Positions 2,605 to 27,382 of a DNA stretch of 32,000 nucleotides are shown here, piece by piece; the stretch's first letter is position 1, and each line of letters begins with the position of its first letter. The DNA comes from Pirellula staleyi DSM 6068 (GTDB lineage: Bacteria > Planctomycetota > Planctomycetia > Pirellulales > Pirellulaceae): NCBI GenBank assembly GCA_000025185.1, contig CP001848.1, positions 2,370,001 through 2,402,000 on the forward strand. The letters run 5' to 3'. The notes beneath the pieces are model-generated. The model was not told where the DNA came from and did not search any database. It saw only the letters and a list, made by a program, of their open reading frames with translations. The position numbers and the translations under genes are program-made.

Positions 2605-2977
2605 CGCAGCTGAGGGTGACATTAACCGATATACGAAGTAATACTTGCTCCCGTGTGCACTTCGTCGAGCTAGCCTCGCCCCAGCATTCGTGTGGCGCGT
2701 GATAGCACCGCTAGCCTCGACCTTCTTCACCCTCCACGTCAGTCGCAAGTCGACGCTAGCAATGCTTTTTCCATGCATTCCCGCTCGCGCCGGAGGCTAA
2801 TCCGAATATCTTGCCAAAATCGATGTCGACACGATTGGCAAAATGAGCATAATCCCACCCCGCCTGCCAAAGTGCACAGCCGTCAAAAGCCGATTCAGTT
2901 GCTAGGACCTAATCGGTGTGTGATGGCTCGCCAAGTTGGCGGCAGATGGACGGATCCAGACCCAAGTCCGCAGCAGC

Positions 2978-3874
2978 ATGATGCACCGCTGTGGCACGCG
3001 AGATTCAATCGTGGCCAACATTCACCCAACGGCTGTAGTCGACAGCAGCGCCGAAATCGGTGCTGACGTGACGATCGGCCCGTTTTGCGTTATCGAGAAA
3101 GGGGTGGTGATTGGCGACGGCTGCACGCTCGAAAGTCGCGTGGTCGTCAAAAGTCGCACTTCTCTCGGACGTCAAAACGAAATCGGCGAAGGGACCGTCC
3201 TCGGCGGCCGCGCCCAACATGTGCACGTCCTCGATCCCGGAGGTGTGCTCATCATCGGCGACAACAACCGGATTCGCGAAAACGCGACGGTTCATCGTGG
3301 CTATGCCAACGATGCCAAAACCACGATCGGCAACAACAATCTCATGATGGTCGGAGTGCACGTCGCTCACGATTGCACCGTCGGCAACAACACCATCATC
3401 GTCAACAACGCCATGCTCGCCGGGCATGTACAGGTCGAAGATCGCGCCTACATCTCCGGTGGCGTTGCGATTCACCAATTCTGCCGCGTCGGAAAATTGG
3501 CCATGGTGGGTGGCCTCGCCAAGGTGACCCAGGATGTGCCCCCGTTCGTGCTCGTCGAAGGTGGTGGCGCTCCCGAAGTTGTCGGACTCAATAAAGTTGG
3601 CATCCGTCGCAATGGCTACACCGCCGACGAAATGCTGCAGCTCAAAACCGCCTATCGTGTGATCTATCGCCAGGGACTCCGCTGGAGCGAAGTGCTCGAG
3701 ATCCTGCAGCGCGATTTCCCGACCGGACCTGCCGCCGCGATGCACGAATTTTTCGTCACCGGCAAACGAGGCTACGTGCAAGAACGACGTATCTCGCGCA
3801 AGGCCACCCTCAAACTCGCCGCTCCACCAGCGGACGAAGATGCCAGCGAATCTCGCGGTCGCGGCGCAGCCTAG
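2978..3874 (+). CDS. lpxA: acyl-ACP--UDP-N-acetylglucosamine O-acyltransferase
   Basis: Left-handed beta-helix hexapeptide repeats (IHPTAVVDSSAEIGADVTIGPFCVIEKGVVIGDGCTL...). LpxA-type C-terminal helical domain (GLNKVGIRRNGYTADEMLQLKTAYRVIYRQGL). Start placed at the first ATG (2978) inside the TTG-initiated track ORF. Confidence 0.9.
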   Translation: MMHRCGTRDSIVANIHPTAVVDSSAEIGADVTIGPFCVIEKGVVIGDGCTLESRVVVKSRTSLGRQNEIGEGTVLGGRAQHVHVLDPGGVLIIGDNNRIRENATVHRGYANDAKTTIGNNNLMMVGVHVAHDCTVGNNTIIVNNAMLAGHVQVEDRAYISGGVAIHQFCRVGKLAMVGGLAKVTQDVPPFVLVEGGGAPEVVGLNKVGIRRNGYTADEMLQLKTAYRVIYRQGLRWSEVLEILQRDFPTGPAAAMHEFFVTGKRGYVQERRISRKATLKLAAPPADEDASESRGRGAA

Positions 3875-3887
3875 TGCCCCAGAAGCA

Positions 3888-3927
3888 GAGGCTAGGGGCT
3901 AGAGATTAGAGATTAGAGGCTAGTCCC
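3888..3927. repeat. short CTAG-rich tandem repeat
   Basis: GAGGCTAG occurs at 3888 and 3916, flanking AGAGATT x2.6 (3901-3918). It lies immediately after the lpxA stop. Confidence 0.6.
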
Positions 3928-3988
3928 GTAGGTCAGGTCCCCTCTCAGGGACCTGACGGGAGTTGATCTAGCCATTCTTTCGCCGGGT
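3928..3988 (+). repeat. family C REP-like element: GTAGG + hairpin GTCAGGTCCC/ctctca/GGGACCTGAC + 31-nt tail
   Basis: 58/61 identical to 5236-5296. The stem is a perfect 10 bp. Confidence 0.9.
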
Positions 3989-4043
3989 TCATCTCCCCGC
4001 CATTGAGTCAACATAAACTAGCCGGGTGCCATGCTCCAGAACT

Positions 4044-4083
4044 GGGTGCCATGCTCCTGTCGCGCCAGCAGCAGGAGCATGCT
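4044..4083 (+). repeat. family A-short palindromic element
   Basis: GGGTGCCATGCTCCTGTCGCGCCAGCAGCAGGAGCATGCT. The stem CATGCTCCTG/CAGGAGCATG covaries relative to the other copies. An orphan head, GGGTGCCATGCTCC, precedes it at 4024-4037. Confidence 0.85.
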
Positions 4084-4111
4084 GAAGCCCGCGTGTCAGC
4101 AGGCCCATCTC

Positions 4112-4136
4112 GTAGGTCAGGTACTCCGTACCTGAC
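4112..4136 (+). repeat. family C REP-like element (GTAGG + GTCAGGTAC/tcc/GTACCTGAC)
   Basis: GTAGG head and a 9-bp perfect stem. Same head and first 7 stem bases as 3928/5236, with a different, self-complementary inner stem. Confidence 0.8.
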
Positions 4137-4190
4137 AGCGCACCAACCCGCCATCCACTCACCCCACCTGGCGTCTCTTCGCGCATTTCA

Positions 4191-4218
4191 TTGACTCCCG
4201 GCCCGCAATCTGCAGAAA
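4191..4218 (+). promoter_or_regulatory. candidate sigma70-type promoter TTGACT-N16-CAGAAA in a duplicated leader
   Basis: The identical architecture TTGACT-N16-CAGAAT recurs at 4609-4636 within an otherwise diverged (about 60-65%) direct repeat. Each copy sits about 95-100 nt upstream of a small ORF start. Confidence 0.3.
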
Positions 4219-4318
4219 AATCTCAGGCTTGGAAATTGCGGAGTTCGGTCTACGATTCGTTCGGCGGCTGACTAGCACCGGTGAACATTGGCGGGAAAAT
4301 CCCGTGGGAGGTAGGGCG

Positions 4319-4543
4319 ATGCGTACCCTGAGTTTCATCCTGCTCGCTCTGGGAGCGATCAGCATGTTGATCTCCTTGCCCCTCTTGGGGTTTGCTGTTC
4401 TCGGGTTTCTTGGCGTTCTGGCCGACGTGGGCGTTTCCGAGAATCGCGAAATGGGGATGCAGCTAGTCTTGATGGGACTTCCACCCCTGATCGGCGGTGT
4501 GGTCTTCTGCGCGATTGGCCTACTCGTCCTGAAGTTCAGGTAA
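4319..4543 (+). CDS. small integral membrane protein (74 aa, 2-3 TM segments)
   Basis: ATG at 4319 is preceded by GGGAGG (4305-4310). The product is strongly hydrophobic (FILLALGAISMLISLPLLGFAVLGFLGVL; LPPLIGGVVFCAIGLLVL). The stop TAA lies inside a degenerate family C hairpin. Confidence 0.45.
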   Translation: MRTLSFILLALGAISMLISLPLLGFAVLGFLGVLADVGVSENREMGMQLVLMGLPPLIGGVVFCAIGLLVLKFR

Positions 4544-4556
4544 GTGCATACCTGAC
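4534..4556 (+). repeat. degenerate family C hairpin (TCAGGTA/agtgca/TACCTGA) overlapping a stop codon
   Basis: 7-bp stem. It occupies the same position relative to the duplicated leader as 4112-4136, but the GTAGG head is replaced by GAAGTTCAGG. Confidence 0.55.
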
Positions 4557-4608
4557 AACACACTAGGCCGCCATCCACGTAGCAAGTCTGTGTCTCGCTG
4601 GTATTTCG

Positions 4609-4636
4609 TTGACTCCCCACCCTCGAACTGCAGAAT
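4609..4636 (+). promoter_or_regulatory. candidate sigma70-type promoter TTGACT-N16-CAGAAT in a duplicated leader
   Basis: Second copy of the 4191-4218 motif, 94 nt upstream of the ATG at 4730. Confidence 0.3.
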
Positions 4637-4729
4637 AGTTTGTGTGTGGAGTTGGTGGAGTTCTGTCTATTGGTTCTGTCTCTAAATCGAACCTACGTGA
4701 AACGGATCGTGTTTCGAAAATTCATCGCC

Positions 4730-5239
4730 ATGATTCGACAGCTTCTCGGTCAGCCCCAGACCGAATCAGCAGGCCGATGGGACATCGGCACTGCACACTT
4801 GCAATACGACTCCATCGAGGACTGGATGACTGGCGAAAACGTTCCGCTGGAGTTCATCAAGGAACCCGATCCGATACTTCGTGACAAATACATTCGGCAA
4901 TATGGAGAGCTTCGGCGTCACTTGTACGCAAAACACGTTGGTACGCTGTCACCTGACGTTCAGCAGGCAATCCATCAAGGGTGCCATCCGTCACAAAGCC
5001 ATCGATTCGCCGATGATGCTCAACCATACTGCGAGCTATTGCAGCGTCATTTGGCAACACTTGGCGTGGATATGTCGAACGTACAGTTGGGCTGGTACCA
5101 CATGGATAGGATCGTGCTCACAGTCGAAACGCCCAAGCAGTTTGATGTCGCAAGCTCCCGAGGGCTTCCATGGCTCTTTCAGGGCTTCGAGGTAAAATAC
5201 ATCTCCACTGCAGGCAAAGACGTTGCAGAAGACTTGTAG
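4730..5239 (+). CDS. hypothetical protein (169 aa)
   Basis: First ATG in ORF 4640..5239. Soluble-protein composition and no recognised family. The stop TAG is the TAG of the GTAGG head of element 5236. A paralogous 3' fragment lies at 5374-5466. Confidence 0.5.
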   Translation: MIRQLLGQPQTESAGRWDIGTAHLQYDSIEDWMTGENVPLEFIKEPDPILRDKYIRQYGELRRHLYAKHVGTLSPDVQQAIHQGCHPSQSHRFADDAQPYCELLQRHLATLGVDMSNVQLGWYHMDRIVLTVETPKQFDVASSRGLPWLFQGFEVKYISTAGKDVAEDL

Positions 5240-5296
5240 GTCAGGTCCCCTCTCAGGGACCTGACAGGAGTTGATCTAGCCATTCTCTCACCGGGT
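5236..5296 (+). repeat. family C REP-like element (61-bp form)
   Basis: 58/61 identical to 3928-3988. It is followed by a degenerate family A head, GGGTGCCTGTGCT (5293-). Confidence 0.9.
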
Positions 5297-5348
5297 GCCT
5301 GTGCTCGAAGCAGCTCAACCCAGTTTTGGCCAAACCTCGCATTATCTT

Positions 5349-5369
5349 GTCCGGTGGAACCGGACCTAC
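5349..5369 (-). repeat. family C REP-like element (reverse): GTAGG TCCGGT/tcc/ACCGGA C
   Basis: Its reverse complement has the same loop and length as 22923-22948. Stem changes are compensatory (GCCGGT/ACCGGC becomes TCCGGT/ACCGGA). Confidence 0.8.
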
Positions 5370-5373
5370 CTTC

Positions 5374-5466
5374 TTCGAGATAAAATACAGCTCCACAGAA
5401 GGCAAAGACGTGGCAGAAGCATGCGGTGAACCAGAACTGCCTGTGATCCGAGATTCGAAGTCCTAG
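5374..5466 (+). pseudogene. 3'-terminal remnant of a paralog of the 4730..5239 gene
   Basis: 5373-5421 aligns with 5185-5233 at 42/49 nt. In frame this reads FEIKYSSTEGKDVAE versus FEVKYISTAGKDVAE, then runs to a TAG at 5464-5466. No upstream ORF body exists; the fragment starts right after hairpin 5349-5369. Confidence 0.5.
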
Positions 5467-5540
5467 TTTGGGGCGGCCATTCCATTTTCTGCCGTCGTTA
5501 TGCATTCAGTAATCATCGAGCCTAAGGGAGTACATCCGGT

Positions 5541-5783
5541 ATGAATGGCAAGCAGCCGAATAATCCCTTGCACGGAGTCACGCTTGAGAGTGTCGTCGTG
5601 AGGCTTGTTGATCACTATGGCTGGGAAAATCTTGGCCTTCATATCAATATTAATTGCTTCAAGAATGATCCCTCGGTGAAATCTAGCCTGAAGTTTTTGC
5701 GACGAACACCTTGGGCCCGAGCGCAGGTCGAGAATTTGTACGTCGCTACCTTTCCGCTTCGTGGAAAGTCGGAAAATGCATAG
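5541..5783 (+). CDS. DUF2132 / VF530-family small DNA-binding-like protein
   Basis: [25 protein letters not shown]...[29 protein letters not shown] matches the VF530/DUF2132 signature ([30 protein letters not shown]). An AAGGGAG RBS lies at 5524-5530. GC is lower than the flanks. Confidence 0.8.
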
Positions 5784-5882
5784 CTAGAGGTTCACTTGGA
5801 CCATCTTGTAGTAGTCCGTCTACCGATCCATGTCATAATCCTCGGAGTGTTTGTGCACGCCGCAGCTCAAGGGCTTATAGAA

Positions 5883-5916
5883 ATTCACACTGCTGGACAA
5901 GCCAGCAGTGCCACCC
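5883..5916 (-). repeat. family B palindromic element (reverse)
   Basis: Exact reverse complement of 2571-2604 (34/34). Confidence 0.9.
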
Positions 5917-5986
5917 GGCCGTTTGATGATGGCGGCTGAGCTTTGTCGTTCGGCGATGCAGATCGTTACCCCTCCCAGGGTGCCCC

Positions 5987-6208
5987 ATGAAGGCGATTGA
6001 GATTTGGCGGAACGGTGAGAAGTTGGCAGCCGCAGGGTTGGTCGATGGTATGGTCACCGTCACGCTTACGATCAGAAATCCAAGCGACCCCATTTGGTTG
6101 GACGCGCGAGGACGCGATGCGTCGACAGGTGGGCATGCCGAATGGCTCCACGAATCTGCTCAGATTGGAGACGAATTCGTCCTTCGCTTGGTTGAAGTTG
6201 AACCGTAA
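5987..6208 (+). CDS. hypothetical small protein (73 aa)
   Basis: ATG-initiated ORF with balanced composition, bracketed by repeat elements at 5883 and 6273. No family recognised, and alternative overlapping ORFs exist. Confidence 0.4.
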   Translation: MKAIEIWRNGEKLAAAGLVDGMVTVTLTIRNPSDPIWLDARGRDASTGGHAEWLHESAQIGDEFVLRLVEVEP

Positions 6209-6272
6209 TACTTCGTCGAGCAAGTCGTTAGACGCAGAGATAAAACGTTTGCTAAGCGATGCCGCCCGGTTC

Positions 6273-6324
6273 GCATGCTTGTCCTCCTGCGTGCGAAGCA
6301 CTTCGTCGGGCAAGCATGGCACCC
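6273..6324 (-). repeat. family A-long palindromic element (reverse)
   Basis: GCATGCTTGTCCTCCTGCGTGCGAAGCACTTCGTCGGGCAAGCATGGCACCC, near-identical to 2379-2432. An extra ACTTCGTCGGGC motif lies at 6334-6345. Confidence 0.85.
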
Positions 6325-6404
6325 AGGTAAAGGACTTCGTCGGGCTAGGATGGGAGCCAGGGAAGTGGGGATGAAGGTTGAGGGGAGAGCAGTGAGGTGG
6401 GATC

Positions 6405-11409: not shown

Positions 11410-11438
11410 CTCGCCCGGTGAAGGGTTGGATCTTCTCT

Positions 11439-11490
11439 GGGTGCCATGCTTGTCCGGTGAAGTGCGCAGCACGGAGCCAGGACAAGCATG
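11439..11490 (+). repeat. family A-long palindromic element
   Basis: GGGTGC-CATGCTTGTCC-(24-nt loop)-GGACAAGCATG with a perfect 11-bp stem, 30 nt after the DUF1501 stop. Confidence 0.85.
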
Positions 11491-11514
11491 AGAATGGCGA
11501 GCGTTTGCTGCACT

Positions 11515-11554
11515 TCGCATGCTCCTCCTGCTGCGCGAGAGGAGCATGGCACCC
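11515..11554 (-). repeat. family A-short palindromic element (reverse)
   Basis: 40/40 match to the reverse complement of 2300-2339. Confidence 0.9.
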
Positions 11555-11657
11555 GGGCTTCAAGGTTGGCATGGCACCCCGACTTCACACTGGCCAGAGG
11601 CCAGTGGCACCCAATGAAATCGTGGCACGCGGCATCACACCGGGAGGACAGTGGCAC
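11547..11657. repeat. array of five TGGCAC(C) motifs, including a family B-like hairpin at 11583-11612
   Basis: TGGCAC at 11547, 11572, 11605, 11623 and 11652. CTTCACACTGGC-cagag-GCCAGTGGCACCC resembles the reverse form of family B. Confidence 0.7.
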
Positions 11658-19984: not shown

Positions 19985-22543
19985 ATGTATGAACGTTTTA
20001 CGGACCGCGCTCGCAAGGTTATGCAACTTGCGAATCAAGAAGCACAGCGGTTCAACCACGAATACATCGGCACCGAGCACATCCTGCTTGGTCTGGTGAA
20101 AGAAGGTAGTGGTGTTGCCGCCAACGTGCTGAAGAATCTTGATGTCGATTTGCGCAAGATTCGCCTCGAAGTGGAAAAGCTCGTCCAAAGTGGCCCCGAA
20201 ATGGTCACCATGGGCAAGCTGCCACAAACGCCGCGTGCCAAAAAGGTCATCGAATATTCGATGGAAGAGGCACGCAACCTGAACCACAACTACGTCGGCA
20301 CCGAGCACATCCTGCTGGGACTTTTGCGCGAGCAAGAGGGTGTCGCCGCCCAAGTGCTGATGAACCTCGGCCTGAAACTCGAAGAAGTTCGCGAAGAGGT
20401 GCTGAACCTCCTCGGTCACGGACTCGAAGGGGAATCGACCGGCGAACGTGGCGGTCGCGAAGGAGTCGGTGTGGGTGGTCAGTCGGGCGAACAGCAAGCC
20501 GCTGGTCGGGGTAGCAAAAGCAAAACCCCTGCGCTCGACAGCTTTGGCCGCGATCTCACCGAACTCGCTCGTCAAAATAAACTCGATCCGGTCATCGGCC
20601 GCGAACGCGAAATCGAACGGGCCATCCAGGTCCTCTGCCGCCGGACGAAAAACAATCCTGTACTGCTCGGTGAAGCAGGTGTCGGCAAAACGGCCATCGT
20701 CGAAGGCTTCGCCCAGCGCGTGGTCGCCGGCAGTGTTCCTGAAATTCTGGCCGACAAACGAATCGTGGTCCTCGACCTCGCCATGATGGTCGCTGGCACC
20801 AAGTATCGCGGTCAGTTCGAAGAACGTATCAAGGCGGTGATGAACGAAGTTCGTCGCGCTCGCAACACGATCTTGTTCATCGACGAACTCCATACCCTCG
20901 TCGGAGCCGGTGGTGCTGAAGGTGCCATCGACGCCGCGAACGTTCTGAAGCCAGCCCTCGCACGTGGCGAAATCCAGTGCATCGGCGCGACGACGCTCGA
21001 CGAATACCGCAAGTACATCGAAAAAGATGCCGCTCTTGCGCGTCGTTTCCAAGAGATCATTGTCGAACCGACGAGCAAGGACGAAACGGTCGAGATCCTC
21101 AAGGGTCTGCGCGAGAAGTACGAAGACCACCATCGCGTGCAAATCACCGACGATGCCCTCGTCGCTGCTGCCGAGTACAGCGAACGCTATATCACCGCTC
21201 GCTGCTTGCCCGATAAGGCGATCGACGTCATCGACGAAGCAGGCGCTCGTGTCCGTCTGCGGGCCATGACTCGTCCACCAGATCTCAAAGAGATCGACGA
21301 CGAAGTCGAACGCCTCAACAAAGAAAAAGAAGAAGCTGTTGCCAATCAAGATTTTGAAAAGGCAGCCGCTCTTCGCGATCAAGCCGACAAGCTGAAGCGC
21401 AAGAAAGACAACATCACCAAGGAATGGCGCGACAAATCGCGCGAGACCGATGGTGTGGTCGACGAAGAAGTGATTGCCGAAGTGGTCAGCAAGATGACCG
21501 GCATTCCGCTCACGCGCATGAGCACCGAAGACAGCTTGCGTCTGATGAAGATGGAAGAAGAGCTGCACAAGAAGGTGATCAGCCAAGATCAGGCCGTCAC
21601 CGCGATTGCCAAGGCGGTCCGTCGTACGCGGAGCGGTCTCAAAGACCCACGTCGTCCTGCCGGCTGCTTTGTGTTCGCTGGTCCGACCGGTGTTGGTAAG
21701 ACGCTGCTGGCCAAGGCACTCGCCGAATTCATGTTTGGCGATGCCGACGCGCTCATTCAAATCGATATGAGCGAGTACATGGAAAAGCACAACGTCAGCC
21801 GACTGATCGGTGCTCCTCCCGGCTATGTGGGCTACGAAGAAGGTGGCCAGCTGACCGAGAAGATCCGTCGTCGTCCTTACGCGGTGGTGCTGCTCGACGA
21901 AATCGAAAAAGCCCATCCCGACGTCTTCAATACCCTGCTGCAAGTGATGGAAGAAGGCCGTTTGACCGACAGCTTCGGTCGCCGCGTCGACTTCCGCAAC
22001 GTCATCCTCATCATGACGACCAACGCAGGTGCTGAAGCGATCAAGAACGAATCGGACTTTGGTTTCCGCCAAGGTGATACCGACGCTTCGTACGACGGCA
22101 TGAAGGCTCGCGTGATGGACCGCATCGAACGTGTGTTCCGTCCGGAGTTCCTCAACCGTCTCGACGACGTGATCGTGTTCCAGCACCTGACCAAGGACAA
22201 CCTGAAGCTGGTGATCGATCTCGAATTGCTCAAGGTTCGTCAACGTCTGGCCGAGCGTGGTTTGCAGCTCGAACTGACCGACACGGCCAAAGAGTTCATC
22301 ATCAAGAAGGGTTCGAATACCGATTTCGGTGCTCGTCCGCTTCGTCGCGCGGTGGAAAATTACATCGAAGATCCGCTGGCCGAAGAACTCCTCAAGGGAG
22401 AGTTCCAAGGAAAGGATTTGATCCAAGTCGACGCCATCCGCGACGACGAAGGAAAACTCCGCCGGCTCGACTTCAAGGGTGTCACCACCTCAGCTGCTCC
22501 CGTCGCCGCCGCTCCCAGCAGCAGCGAATCACAGCCGAGCTAA
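19985..22543 (+). CDS. clpC: ATP-dependent Clp protease ATP-binding subunit ClpC (class I AAA+)
   Basis: Clp_N repeats ([37 protein letters not shown]...). Two Walker A sites ([16 protein letters not shown]). UVR-like linker ([16 protein letters not shown]). Sensor motif GARPLRR is present. Confidence 0.95.
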
Positions 22544-22552
22544 TGGATGAAA

Positions 22553-22573
22553 GTAGGGCCGGTTTCGCCGGCC
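22553..22573 (+). repeat. family C REP-like element (GTAGG GCCGG/tttcg/CCGGC C)
   Basis: GTAGG head plus hairpin, 10 nt after the clpC stop. Confidence 0.8.
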
Positions 22574-22626: not shown

Positions 22627-22661
22627 ACCGCCGCGAGCCCTCAAACTCGTGGCGGTTTTTT
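22627..22661 (+). terminator. Rho-independent terminator of clpC
   Basis: ACCGCCGCGAG (22627-37) pairs with CTCGTGGCGGT (22646-56): 11 bp with one G-T pair and an 8-nt loop. A run of six T follows (22656-22661). Confidence 0.7.
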
Positions 22662-22711
22662 CATGCGCCGCCACCTGTAAACGCACGCCGTGCGTGTGGT
22701 ATGCCATCCGT

Positions 22712-22737
22712 GTAGTGGCCGGTGCAGCCGGCCCTAC
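22712..22737. repeat. family C REP-like element, symmetric form (GTAGtGGCCGG/tgcag/CCGGCCCTAC)
   Basis: GTAG...CTAC flank a GGCCGG/CCGGCC stem. Confidence 0.8.
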
Positions 22738-22752
22738 AAGCGGCCACTTGCC

Positions 22753-22773
22753 GTAGGGCCGGTTTTACCGGCC
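22753..22773 (+). repeat. family C REP-like element (GTAGG GCCGGT/ttt/ACCGGC C)
   Basis: GTAGG head and a 7-bp stem. Confidence 0.8.
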
Positions 22774-22790
22774 GAGCAATTAACAGCAGA

Positions 22791-22830
22791 TCACATGCTC
22801 TTGCTGCTGCGCGACAAGAGCATGGCACCG
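22791..22830 (-). repeat. family A-short palindromic element (reverse)
   Basis: Its reverse complement is 38/40 identical to 27343-27382. The stem is CATGCTCTTG/CAAGAGCATG and the loop is the conserved TCGCGCAGCAG. Confidence 0.9.
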
Positions 22831-22875
22831 AGGCGCATGGTACCCAGGCATATGGCACCCAGGCGCATTTGTGCC
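22816..22875 (+). repeat. tandem 15-bp repeat x4 derived from the family A head
   Basis: The in-phase units are AAGAGCATGGCACCG, AGGCGCATGGTACCC, AGGCATATGGCACCC and AGGCGCATTTGTGCC. Confidence 0.8.
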
Positions 22876-22922
22876 TGATGTGGGGATGTCCCACTAACGT
22901 TGCATGCGTCGAGATCACACCG

Positions 22923-22948
22923 GTAGTGGCCGGTGGAACCGGCCCTAC
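22923..22948. repeat. family C REP-like element, symmetric form (GTAGtGGCCGGT/gga/ACCGGCCCTAC)
   Basis: Same architecture as 22712-22737. Its reverse complement resembles 27322-27344. Confidence 0.8.
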
Positions 22949-26838: not shown

Positions 26839-27309
26839 ATGAGCGACATCGACCTTATTCACCGCTGGCTCAAGGCCTTCCAGAGCAGCGATTACGACAC
26901 GATGGCCACGTGCTATCATCCCGACGCCACCTTCACCGATATCGCGTTTGTTTTGCAGGGGCAAAAGCAAATTCATGCGATGTGGCACATGATCTGTGAA
27001 AACGGAATCGAGGTGGAGCTTAGGGAGAGCCCCCGCGCAAGTGGCGAGACGGTGACGACGAAAATCATCGACACCTATAAGCTTTCCAACACCGGCCGTC
27101 AGGTGAAGAACCCGGTGCTGTGCACCTTTCGCTTTCGCGAAGGAAAGATCATCGAGCAGCGCGACGAGTGTGATCCCATCGCTTGGGCCGCGCAAGCTTT
27201 CGGCGGCATCAAAGGGTGGTTCGTCGGCCGCATCGGCCTACTCCGCCGCATCGCCGCCCGAAAGAAAATCGAAGCCTTCATCCAGCAGCATCCCCAGTAC
27301 GCCGAATAA
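26839..27309 (+). CDS. SnoaL-like / NTF2-fold protein
   Basis: IHRWLKAFQSSDYDTMATCYHPDATFTD...REGKIIEQRDECD is the canonical nuclear-transport-factor-2/SnoaL pattern. Confidence 0.75.
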   Translation: MSDIDLIHRWLKAFQSSDYDTMATCYHPDATFTDIAFVLQGQKQIHAMWHMICENGIEVELRESPRASGETVTTKIIDTYKLSNTGRQVKNPVLCTFRFREGKIIEQRDECDPIAWAAQAFGGIKGWFVGRIGLLRRIAARKKIEAFIQQHPQYAE

Positions 27310-27321
27310 GGCCGTCAACTG

Positions 27322-27344
27322 GTAGGGCCGGTTCCACCTGCCGG
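27322..27344 (+). repeat. family C REP-like element (GTAGG GCCGGTTCCACC(t)GCC)
   Basis: Matches the reverse complement of 22923-22948 with a 1-nt insertion. Overlaps the next element's head by 2 nt. Confidence 0.75.
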
Positions 27345-27382
27345 GTGCCATGCTTTTGTCGCGCAGCAGCAAGAGCATGTGA
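27343..27382 (+). repeat. family A-short palindromic element
   Basis: GGGTGCCATGCTTTTGTCGCGCAGCAGCAAGAGCATGTGA, 38/40 to the reverse complement of 22791-22830. It lies in a 97-bp gap between convergent genes. Confidence 0.9.

Follow-up and report, generated by a model that had tools for sequence, protein, structure and literature searches.

The stretch of DNA analysed here, hereafter the window, comprises 32,000 nucleotides of the chromosome of Pirellula staleyi DSM 6068 (GenBank assembly GCA_000025185.1, contig CP001848.1, positions 2,370,001 to 2,402,000, forward strand), and our subject is a set of short palindromes within it that are headed by the tetranucleotide GTAG. The surrounding genes are those of an ordinary chromosome: an LpxA-like acyltransferase, a VF530 protein, a PSCyt2/PSD1 and DUF1501 pair, RibD, ThiD/TMP-TENI and ClpC, together with SnoaL-like and DUF6580 proteins. 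The RibD sequence matches that of the P. staleyi DSM 6068 protein ADB16552.1 without a difference. Reading the window letter by letter, we find ten GTAG-hairpin sites at five intergenic locations, none of them within a long open reading frame (ORF). A preliminary description had listed these ten sites and their stem sequences, and direct reading bears out both. Our analysis indicates that the ten sites are very probably repetitive extragenic palindromic (REP) elements of the GTAG-tagged superfamily, that is, stem-loops with an unpaired 5' GTAG "foot", linked to a family of REP-associated tyrosine transposases (RAYTs) like that of E. coli. The copies are as follows, with z scores for folding as single-stranded DNA.

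3928-3957, plus strand: GTAGGTCAGGTCCCCTCTCAGGGACCTGAC; GTAG followed by a 10-bp stem GTCAGGTCCC with loop CTCTCA (dG -13.5, z -3.9), 54 nt 3' of the stop of the LpxA-like ORF 2936-3874.
4112-4136, plus strand: GTAGGTCAGGTACTCCGTACCTGAC; GTAG followed by a 9-bp stem GTCAGGTAC with loop TCC (z -3.8).
4534-4556, plus strand: degenerate copy GTTCAGGTAAGTGCATACCTGAC; head GAAGT for GTAGG, 7-bp stem TCAGGTA (z -1.8), overlapping the stop of the small ORF 4321-4543.
5236-5265, plus strand: same sequence as the copy at 3928; left end of a 134-bp head-out pair, 5236-5369 (z -3.1); the TAG of its foot (5237-5239) is the stop codon of ORF 4640-5239.
5349-5369, minus strand: GTAGGTCCGGTTCCACCGGAC; right end of the head-out pair 5236-5369 (z -3.4).
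22553-22573, plus strand: GTAGGGCCGGTTTCGCCGGCC (z -3.3), 10 nt 3' of the clpC stop (clpC 19985-22543).
22712-22737, minus strand: "double-foot" copy, minus strand GTAGGGCCGGCTGCACCGGCCACTAC; tail-to-tail pair with the copy at 22753 (z -3.9).
22753-22773, plus strand: GTAGGGCCGGTTTTACCGGCC; left end of a 196-bp head-out pair with 22948 (z -2.3).
22923-22948, minus strand: "double-foot" copy, minus strand GTAGGGCCGGTTCCACCGGCCACTAC (z -3.7).
27322-27342, plus strand: decayed copy GTAGGGCCGGTTCCACCTGCC; one stem mismatch and no fold (z +0.1), 13 nt 3' of the stop of the SnoaL-like ORF 26839-27309.

GTAG stands directly at the foot of the palindrome in nine of the ten sites, the exception being 4534. 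The stems GGCCGGT, GTCCGGT and GTCAGGT are all self-complementary, and the perfect stems run from 6 to 10 bp. Stable hairpins are predicted for eight sites (z -2.3 to -3.9), with 4534 marginal and 27322 not folding, and these two copies at least are decaying. The two double-foot copies read GTAGTGGCCGGT..CCGGCCCTAC on the plus strand (GTAGT...CCCTAC), while on the minus strand each shows GTAGG, the stem and a CTAC end with which GTAG can pair; double-foot REPs of the form GT[AG]G...C[TC]AC have been described (PMC6006769). The group at 22712-22948, one tail-to-tail pair and one 196-bp head-out pair, is bordered by convergent genes, and the inverted repeat of the 22753/22948 pair runs 8 nt past GTAG. 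Four copies (3928, 5236, 22553, 27322) are the first element after a stop codon, in sense orientation and 0-54 nt away.

Is GTAG really tied to the stems, or merely a frequent word? The pentamer GTAGG alone is not enriched in the window, with 24 occurrences against 19.9 expected. However, there are 8 places where GTAG abuts a perfect stem of 6 bp or more; in 200 shuffles that preserved the dinucleotides such places averaged 0.2 and never exceeded 2. Among all 256 tetranucleotides that abut stems in the window GTAG ranks first. Moreover, every heptamer G[GT]C[CA]GG[TC] in the window that has an exact 7-nt inverted partner at most 20 nt away is GTAG-headed.

The same hairpins occur well outside P. 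staleyi. A scan for GTAGGKCCGGTNNNACCGGMC, with one genome per species, gave at least 120 matching stretches. Among the matches listed, 88 of 120 stretches come from Planctomycetota, including Planctomycetaceae, Schlesneria, Rubripirellula, Novipirellula, Allorhodopirellula and Pirellulales metagenome-assembled genomes (MAGs). Since the pattern left the closing pair free, allowing all four combinations, the listed matches can be asked whether pairing is kept: in Planctomycetota the closing pair is G..C in 97, T..A in 29 and mismatched in 1, whereas in other phyla 10 of 32 are mismatched, those matches being largely due to chance. Compensatory changes thus maintain the stem from one subfamily to another. 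Of the 127 planctomycete matches listed, 81 have a TCC loop, so that GTAGGGCCGGTTCCACCGGCC is conserved including its loop, and this conservation spans Planctomycetaceae and Pirellulaceae; the core of the copy at 22923-22948 is the 21-mer that dominates across Planctomycetota. We also observed head-to-tail tandem arrays of hairpins in three loci (L045 1-200, L121 30-130, L132 1300-2740), with periods of about 25-50 nt and about 109 nt; no such arrays were seen in the window. In five loci of a Candidatus Binatia MAG (L015, L036, L093, L106, L120) the core GTAGGGCCGGTTGTACCGGCC sits within conserved longer flanks, cgataaagtcgc...ggtcgggtggaa, and a RAYT of the family discussed next (P0260) is annotated from Binatia, so that the family extends beyond Planctomycetota.

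The identification is carried chiefly by what these hairpins flank elsewhere. When known RAYTs were compared by tblastn with the loci found in the genome scan, genes like E. coli RayT proved to adjoin the hairpins, and in at least 11 genomic and metagenomic loci hairpins with the foot and stems of the window bracket RAYT genes in inverted orientation. Some of the loci below were reached via the protein family; the metagenomic ones belong to a scan for GTAGGTCAGGTN{3,12}ACCTGAC, which gave at least the matches listed.

L021: hairpin GTAGGGCCGGTGGTACCGGCC, 46 nt, RAYT ORF 1571-2132 (186 aa), then GGCCGGTACCACCGGCCCTAC overlapping the stop.
L064: a frameshifted second RAYT copy with flanks as in L021.
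L004 and L078: partial RAYT copies with TCC-loop hairpins.
L245 (via the protein family): RAYT with GGCCGG[CT] flanks.
L246 (via the protein family), from Rubripirellula, which belongs to Pirellula's family: several copies of GTAGGTCCGGTTCCACCGGAC flank RAYT P0275, and this 21-mer is identical to window 5349-5369.
L247 and L250 (via the protein family): RAYTs flanked by GTAGGTCAGGC doublets.
L162, L202, L132 and L231 (metagenomic): RAYT genes flanked by GTAGGTCAGG repeats, of the type of the scanned hairpin.

As at 5236, the foot TAG in Rubripirellula serves as the stop codon of a gene, here of the RAYT itself (L246 4565-4567). Compact hairpin doublets occur in the relatives only, at L246 and L250. 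The listed members of the RAYT family, among the best 120 hits, are about 59-78% identical to one another, and since all three stem types of the window flank this family, we take all of them to be REPs of one RAYT family.

The flanked protein is clearly homologous to E. coli TnpA_REP. One of the flanked planctomycete proteins, P0121, carries PF01797; its homologues in Planctomicrobium, Symmachiella and Rubinisphaera are annotated as REP-associated tyrosine transposases, and its sole match of solved structure is E. coli TnpA_REP (PDB 4ER8), over the full length and with E=8.1e-40. In a MAFFT alignment the planctomycete RAYTs are 44-47% identical to E. coli RayT. The HUH histidines H59 and H61 are invariant, as are the catalytic Y115, within D-Y-I-x-x-N-P-V-K-H-G, and W94, Q95, E100 and H101, which are among the residues that contact GTAG (PMC6006769). 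W99 is kept in six of the seven aligned sequences, while R104 is not conserved, being E in five of the six planctomycete RAYTs, and these also carry a 17-residue insertion (alignment columns 90-106). Thus the RAYT linkage in relatives, the GTAG foot and the stems together identify the window copies as GTAG-tagged REPs of the E. coli-like RAYT family. The preliminary description had proposed GTAG-headed palindromes of REP/RAYT type, and this is upheld by the same-headed hairpins around genes for a TnpA_REP homologue. It would have taken the proposal as refuted if neither this genome nor its close relatives had a RAYT and GTAG were not enriched beside hairpins; relatives do have RAYT genes, and in the window GTAG is enriched beside stems.

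A second protein, of the RB11751 type, was considered as the cognate enzyme and rejected, because in Rhodopirellula and Roseimaritima it is flanked by GTAG repeats of another kind (GTAGCCGGATTCGCC.., GTAGTGGATCTTG..), which belong to a different REP family. Proteins of this type have no Pfam hit on record, number 863 homologues and are about 60% identical across Pirellulales. Their flanking GTAG doublets are species-specific, GTAGCCGGATTCGCCAGAATTCGG in Rhodopirellula and GTAGTGGATCTTGTTAAAGATCC in Roseimaritima (L001 9780-11130; L002 9850-10680), and they form a separate planctomycete REP/RAYT lineage.

How could such copies have arisen? Work on E. coli treats GTAG as a recognition or guide element and not as the cleavage site itself, which qualifies the description of GTAG as a cleavage determinant given earlier for this sequence. 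By analogy, a RAYT, being an HUH-Y1 single-strand DNA endonuclease, would bind the folded hairpin together with GTAG on single-stranded DNA, for example at a replication fork, would cut nearby with its catalytic tyrosine and would rejoin the ends; rounds of such cutting and rejoining could have seeded and rearranged the REP copies. Copies lying just 3' of stop codons would be transcribed into the 3' ends of messages, where such hairpins can stabilise mRNA, and they may be kept for that reason. This scheme is modelled on E. coli TnpA_REP and on the IS200/IS605 paradigm, of which PMC6006769 gives a summary.

A comparison with a second strain, represented by a MAG (GCA_002483025.1, locus L123) that is 97-99% identical across about 4.1-25.1 kb of the window, shows where the region has changed. 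The differences concentrate in the repeat-rich spacers. At 4112 the identity begins exactly at the G of GTAG, the upstream sequences being unrelated, and in the cluster at 22.7 kb the second strain has 147 extra nucleotides and a duplicated unit that starts exactly at the CTAC (22734) of the 22712 copy. These two exact GTAG/CTAC breakpoints fit foot-adjacent breakage, though two cases are no proof. An ORF-bearing segment of about 654 bp (window about 4577-5230), with a promoter-like box TTGACT-16-CAGAAT at 4609-4636, is missing in the second strain. A reading of this indel as bounded by GTAG...GTAG was not counted, because its realignment is ambiguous: a single deletion is best placed at 4576/5231, and a two-deletion model also fits. 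Several GGCCGG-type copies show substitutions between the strains, while the TCAGGT-type copies are identical. Separately, the second strain has an extra segment of about 477 bp with a small ORF, lying between 34-nt direct repeats that match window 6219-6252, and the small-gene region as a whole (window 3900-6400, against 1-2250 of L123) is variable between strains.

Some copies have also been duplicated within the window. The first 72 nt from the 3928 hairpin onwards (3928-3999) form a unit that matches 5236-5307 at 89% identity, and the 4534 copy is a paralogue of the 4112 unit, with 30 nt downstream 83% identical. Some 100 nt 3' of the hairpins at 4112 and 4534 are paralogous as well (4129-4240 and 4549-4650, sharing GCCATCCAC ... 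TTTC[AG]TTGACTCCC ... CTGCAGAA), which implies that hairpin and promoter-like leader were duplicated as one unit that lies 5' of two different small ORFs. A short tandem run of ggctagagattagagattagaggctag at 3885-3925 lies directly 5' of the 3928 hairpin. The last 47 nt of ORF 4640-5239 (5185-5231) recur at 89% identity at 5373-5419, after the 134-bp hairpin pair, where the copy continues into a longer C-terminal reading frame; this segment looks like the remnant of a paralogous gene end.

Several observations weigh against assigning the window copies to a RAYT system of this family. There is no RAYT or RAYT remnant in the approximately 36 kb of P. staleyi DNA covered (the window, L123 and L124), the window and the second-strain locus having been searched by tblastn with E. 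coli RayT, RB11751, RB2408, Oter_2468 and 297 collected proteins. A weaker point is that no P. staleyi protein appears among the best 120 hits of either RAYT protein search. For this species Table S1 of PMC6006769, a manually curated set of REPtrons and thus a sample rather than a full census, gives only two TnpA_Y1 genes, both of subclass 2.6 (ADB15620.1 and ADB18706.1), and beyond that table no paper in the literature collection searched connects P. staleyi with RAYT or IS200. The window copies are singletons and loose pairs without compact REPINs (inverted REP doublets): the pairs span 134 and 196 bp, their spacers hold other repeats, and neither forms a single long hairpin. Three stem types coexist in the window. 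Finally, the scan patterns came from the window, so that the similarity of the hits is by construction and independent evidence comes only from RAYT adjacency and covariation.

Since no cognate RAYT was found in the P. staleyi DNA and lists covered, the window copies may be orphans without a resident enzyme. In the fuller form of this idea a RAYT of the P0121 family seeded the copies in an ancestor and its gene has since been lost, the copies persisting passively or by host-level selection and being rearranged only by ordinary recombination; what is disputed is then the claim that a REP/RAYT system is operating, and not the identity of the elements. We think this less likely than not, though a serious possibility. 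The absence of RAYT from the window and L123, the entries of subclass 2.6 alone in Table S1 and the absence of P. staleyi from the best 120 of both searches, though the Pirellulaceae orthologue P0275 is listed, all speak for it, as do the decayed copies at 27322 and 4534 and the GGCCGG-type copies that differ between strains otherwise 97-99% identical (GTAGGGCC -> CTAGGACC, with an extra C in one stem). Furthermore, E. coli strains are known to lose REPtrons yet keep REPs (PMC3733652). On the other hand, the absence of RAYT concerns only about 36 kb of the genome, the strain breakpoints that fall exactly at GTAG/CTAC may point to recent breakage beside the foot, and the TCAGGT-type copies are identical between strains. 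A bolder variant, which we think rather unlikely, is that DNA continues to be broken and joined at the GTAGG hairpins of a P. staleyi that has no cognate E. coli-like RAYT. Behind it stand the strain junctions that abut GTAG/CTAC exactly and the small promoter-bearing genes gained or lost beside hairpins; were it true, it would imply cross-mobilisation by other Y1 enzymes, of subclass 2.6, or REP feet acting as hot spots for accessory-gene shuffling. A role for those subclass-2.6 proteins can also be imagined in a stronger sense, with the hairpins as substrates of ADB15620.1 and ADB18706.1 and no E. coli-like RAYT involved at all. The two genes are the only Table S1 entries of the species, and the GTAGG hairpins often adjoin GGGTGCCA-family repeats in the window (22753-22860; 27322/27343, where the copy directly abuts the repeat). 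However, the repeats around those genes are non-GTAG repeats with other feet, GA[TC]GGGTGG.. and TTCA.. (PMC6006769 Table S1), all RAYT loci examined show the GTAGG hairpins beside the E. coli-like family, and it is in this family that the GTAG-contacting residues are conserved; we therefore consider the idea very unlikely.

Two further explanations dispense with a transposase of this kind altogether. The position of four copies in sense orientation 0-54 nt 3' of stop codons is what one would expect of RNA hairpins, terminators or mRNA stabilisers, evolved locally by the host. However, no T-run follows any GTAGG hairpin, and a terminator scan of the window includes none of them among its terminator-like sites; three copies have the opposite orientation; and the same 21-mer, loop included, is found at unrelated loci in different families of the phylum and brackets RAYT genes. 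At clpC there is in addition a classical terminator-like hairpin at about 22627-22662 (CCGCCGCGAG...CTCGTGGCGG followed by TTTTTT), about 55 nt 3' of the hairpin at 22553, so that termination there need not depend on the latter. A local origin as RNA hairpins is accordingly highly improbable to us, while a secondary RNA role alongside REP identity may exist. The small, strain-variable genes at 3.9-6.4 kb could instead suggest a gene-cassette array with attC-like recombination sites: hairpins lie between small genes, the second strain lacks the segment at about 4577-5230, whose ORF comes with a promoter-like TTGACT box of its own, and carries an additional small ORF at the position corresponding to window 6252. 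Yet there is no integrase nearby among the called genes and Pfam hits, and the hairpins measure 21-30 nt rather than 57-141 nt, lack GTTRRRY/RYYYAAC cores and carry a GTAGG foot. The 4577/5231 junction is not confidently placed on GTAG, 34-nt direct repeats from a different family border the second indel, and the same hairpins follow the housekeeping gene clpC and surround RAYT genes, which together leave a cassette array scarcely credible. Rfam 15 at gathering score gives zero matches across the whole window, and we rejected identities as terminators, attC sites or Rfam families for the lack of T-runs, the mismatch in size, cores and integrase, and the lack of an Rfam match, respectively.

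Besides the GTAG-headed REPs the window holds a second and more abundant repeat family, with a GGGTGSCA foot and variable palindromes, at 17 sites against 2.2 expected. Its members lie at 2299-2339, 2459-2499, 2571-2604, 4023-4090, 5883-5916, 6298-6329, 11437-11612, 22786-22860 and 27342-27382, and they often adjoin GTAGG hairpins. A GGGTGG/GGGTGC foot with a hairpin is the design that flanks ADB15620.1 and a P. mikurensis RAYT (Quentin 2018 Table S1, PMC6006769), and this family is probably a second REP-like system.

Taking the window copies as GTAG-tagged REPs extends the REP/RAYT catalogue to Pirellula staleyi. A single RAYT family seems to serve hairpins whose only differences are compensatory changes in the stem, a convenient natural series with which the reading of foot, stem and loop by a RAYT can be tested. 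The repeats also account for many short intergenic palindromes, mark sites of strain-level rearrangement and mark spots where planctomycete assemblies and gene calls can err, one foot TAG being itself a stop codon.

The window does not reveal a new class of system, since GTAG-tagged REPs and their RAYTs are already established in Proteobacteria and have been reported in planctomycetes. GTAG REPs have been published for R. baltica (GTAG-20/21), Planctomyces limnophilus and P. brasiliensis (Di Nocera 2013, PMC3733652), in a study whose analysed genomes do not include P. staleyi, and subclass-2.2 REPtrons of P. brasiliensis and P. limnophilus appear in Table S1 of Quentin 2018 (PMC6006769); the main text of Nunvar 2010 makes no mention of planctomycetes. 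These published elements belong to the same phylum and have the same GTAG(G) foot, and they too show several REP families in one genome (PMC3733652). The closest in form flank P. brasiliensis ADY61482.1 and read GTAGGGTCCGCTCCGCGGACC, likewise a 7-bp stem with a TCC loop (PMC6006769 Table S1). The stems GGCCGGT, GTCCGGT and GTCAGG, however, differ from the published ones and are absent from that table.

The nearest well-known counterpart is the E. coli system of REPs, bacterial interspersed mosaic elements (BIMEs) and RayT (TnpA_REP, YafM; 4ER8; RAYT group 2, TnpA_Y1 subclass 2.2), with which the window elements have in common a 5' GTAGG foot and a CCGG-containing stem. A likeness of one stem subtype to the E. 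coli REP end had been pointed out before, and it holds: the rayT flanks read GTAGGCCGGATAAGG.., and in K-12, read directly, they are GTAGGCCGGATAAGGCG... and GTAGGACGGATAAGGCG... Like the window copies, E. coli REPs are extragenic, lie mostly 3' of genes and form head-out and tail-to-tail pairs, and the HUH motif, the tyrosine and most GTAG-contacting residues are invariant between RayT and the planctomycete RAYTs. The E. coli stem, however, is about 13 bp long and bulged, whereas the window stems are perfectly paired and shorter, either 7 bp around a 3-nt loop or 9-10 bp, and E. coli RayT lacks the 17-residue planctomycete insertion and has R104 where five of six planctomycete RAYTs have E.

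The comparison with Pseudomonas is more distant. There, as Bertels and Rainey reportedly described in 2011, REPINs are inverted REP doublets tied to a single-copy RAYT, and compact inverted doublets of the present hairpin family do occur in relatives of P. staleyi, at L246 and L250. In the window, by contrast, the spacers of the 134- and 196-bp pairs are not self-complementary and hold other repeats, and most copies are singletons. Finally, the IS200/IS605 elements IS608 and ISDra2 have the same HUH-Y1 fold, and the recognition on single-stranded DNA of a subterminal hairpin together with a short tetranucleotide would be a feature that they share with the system proposed here. They differ in that a REP unit contains no transposase and has no defined left and right ends, REPs being non-autonomous elements whose enzyme is encoded by a single-copy chromosomal gene.

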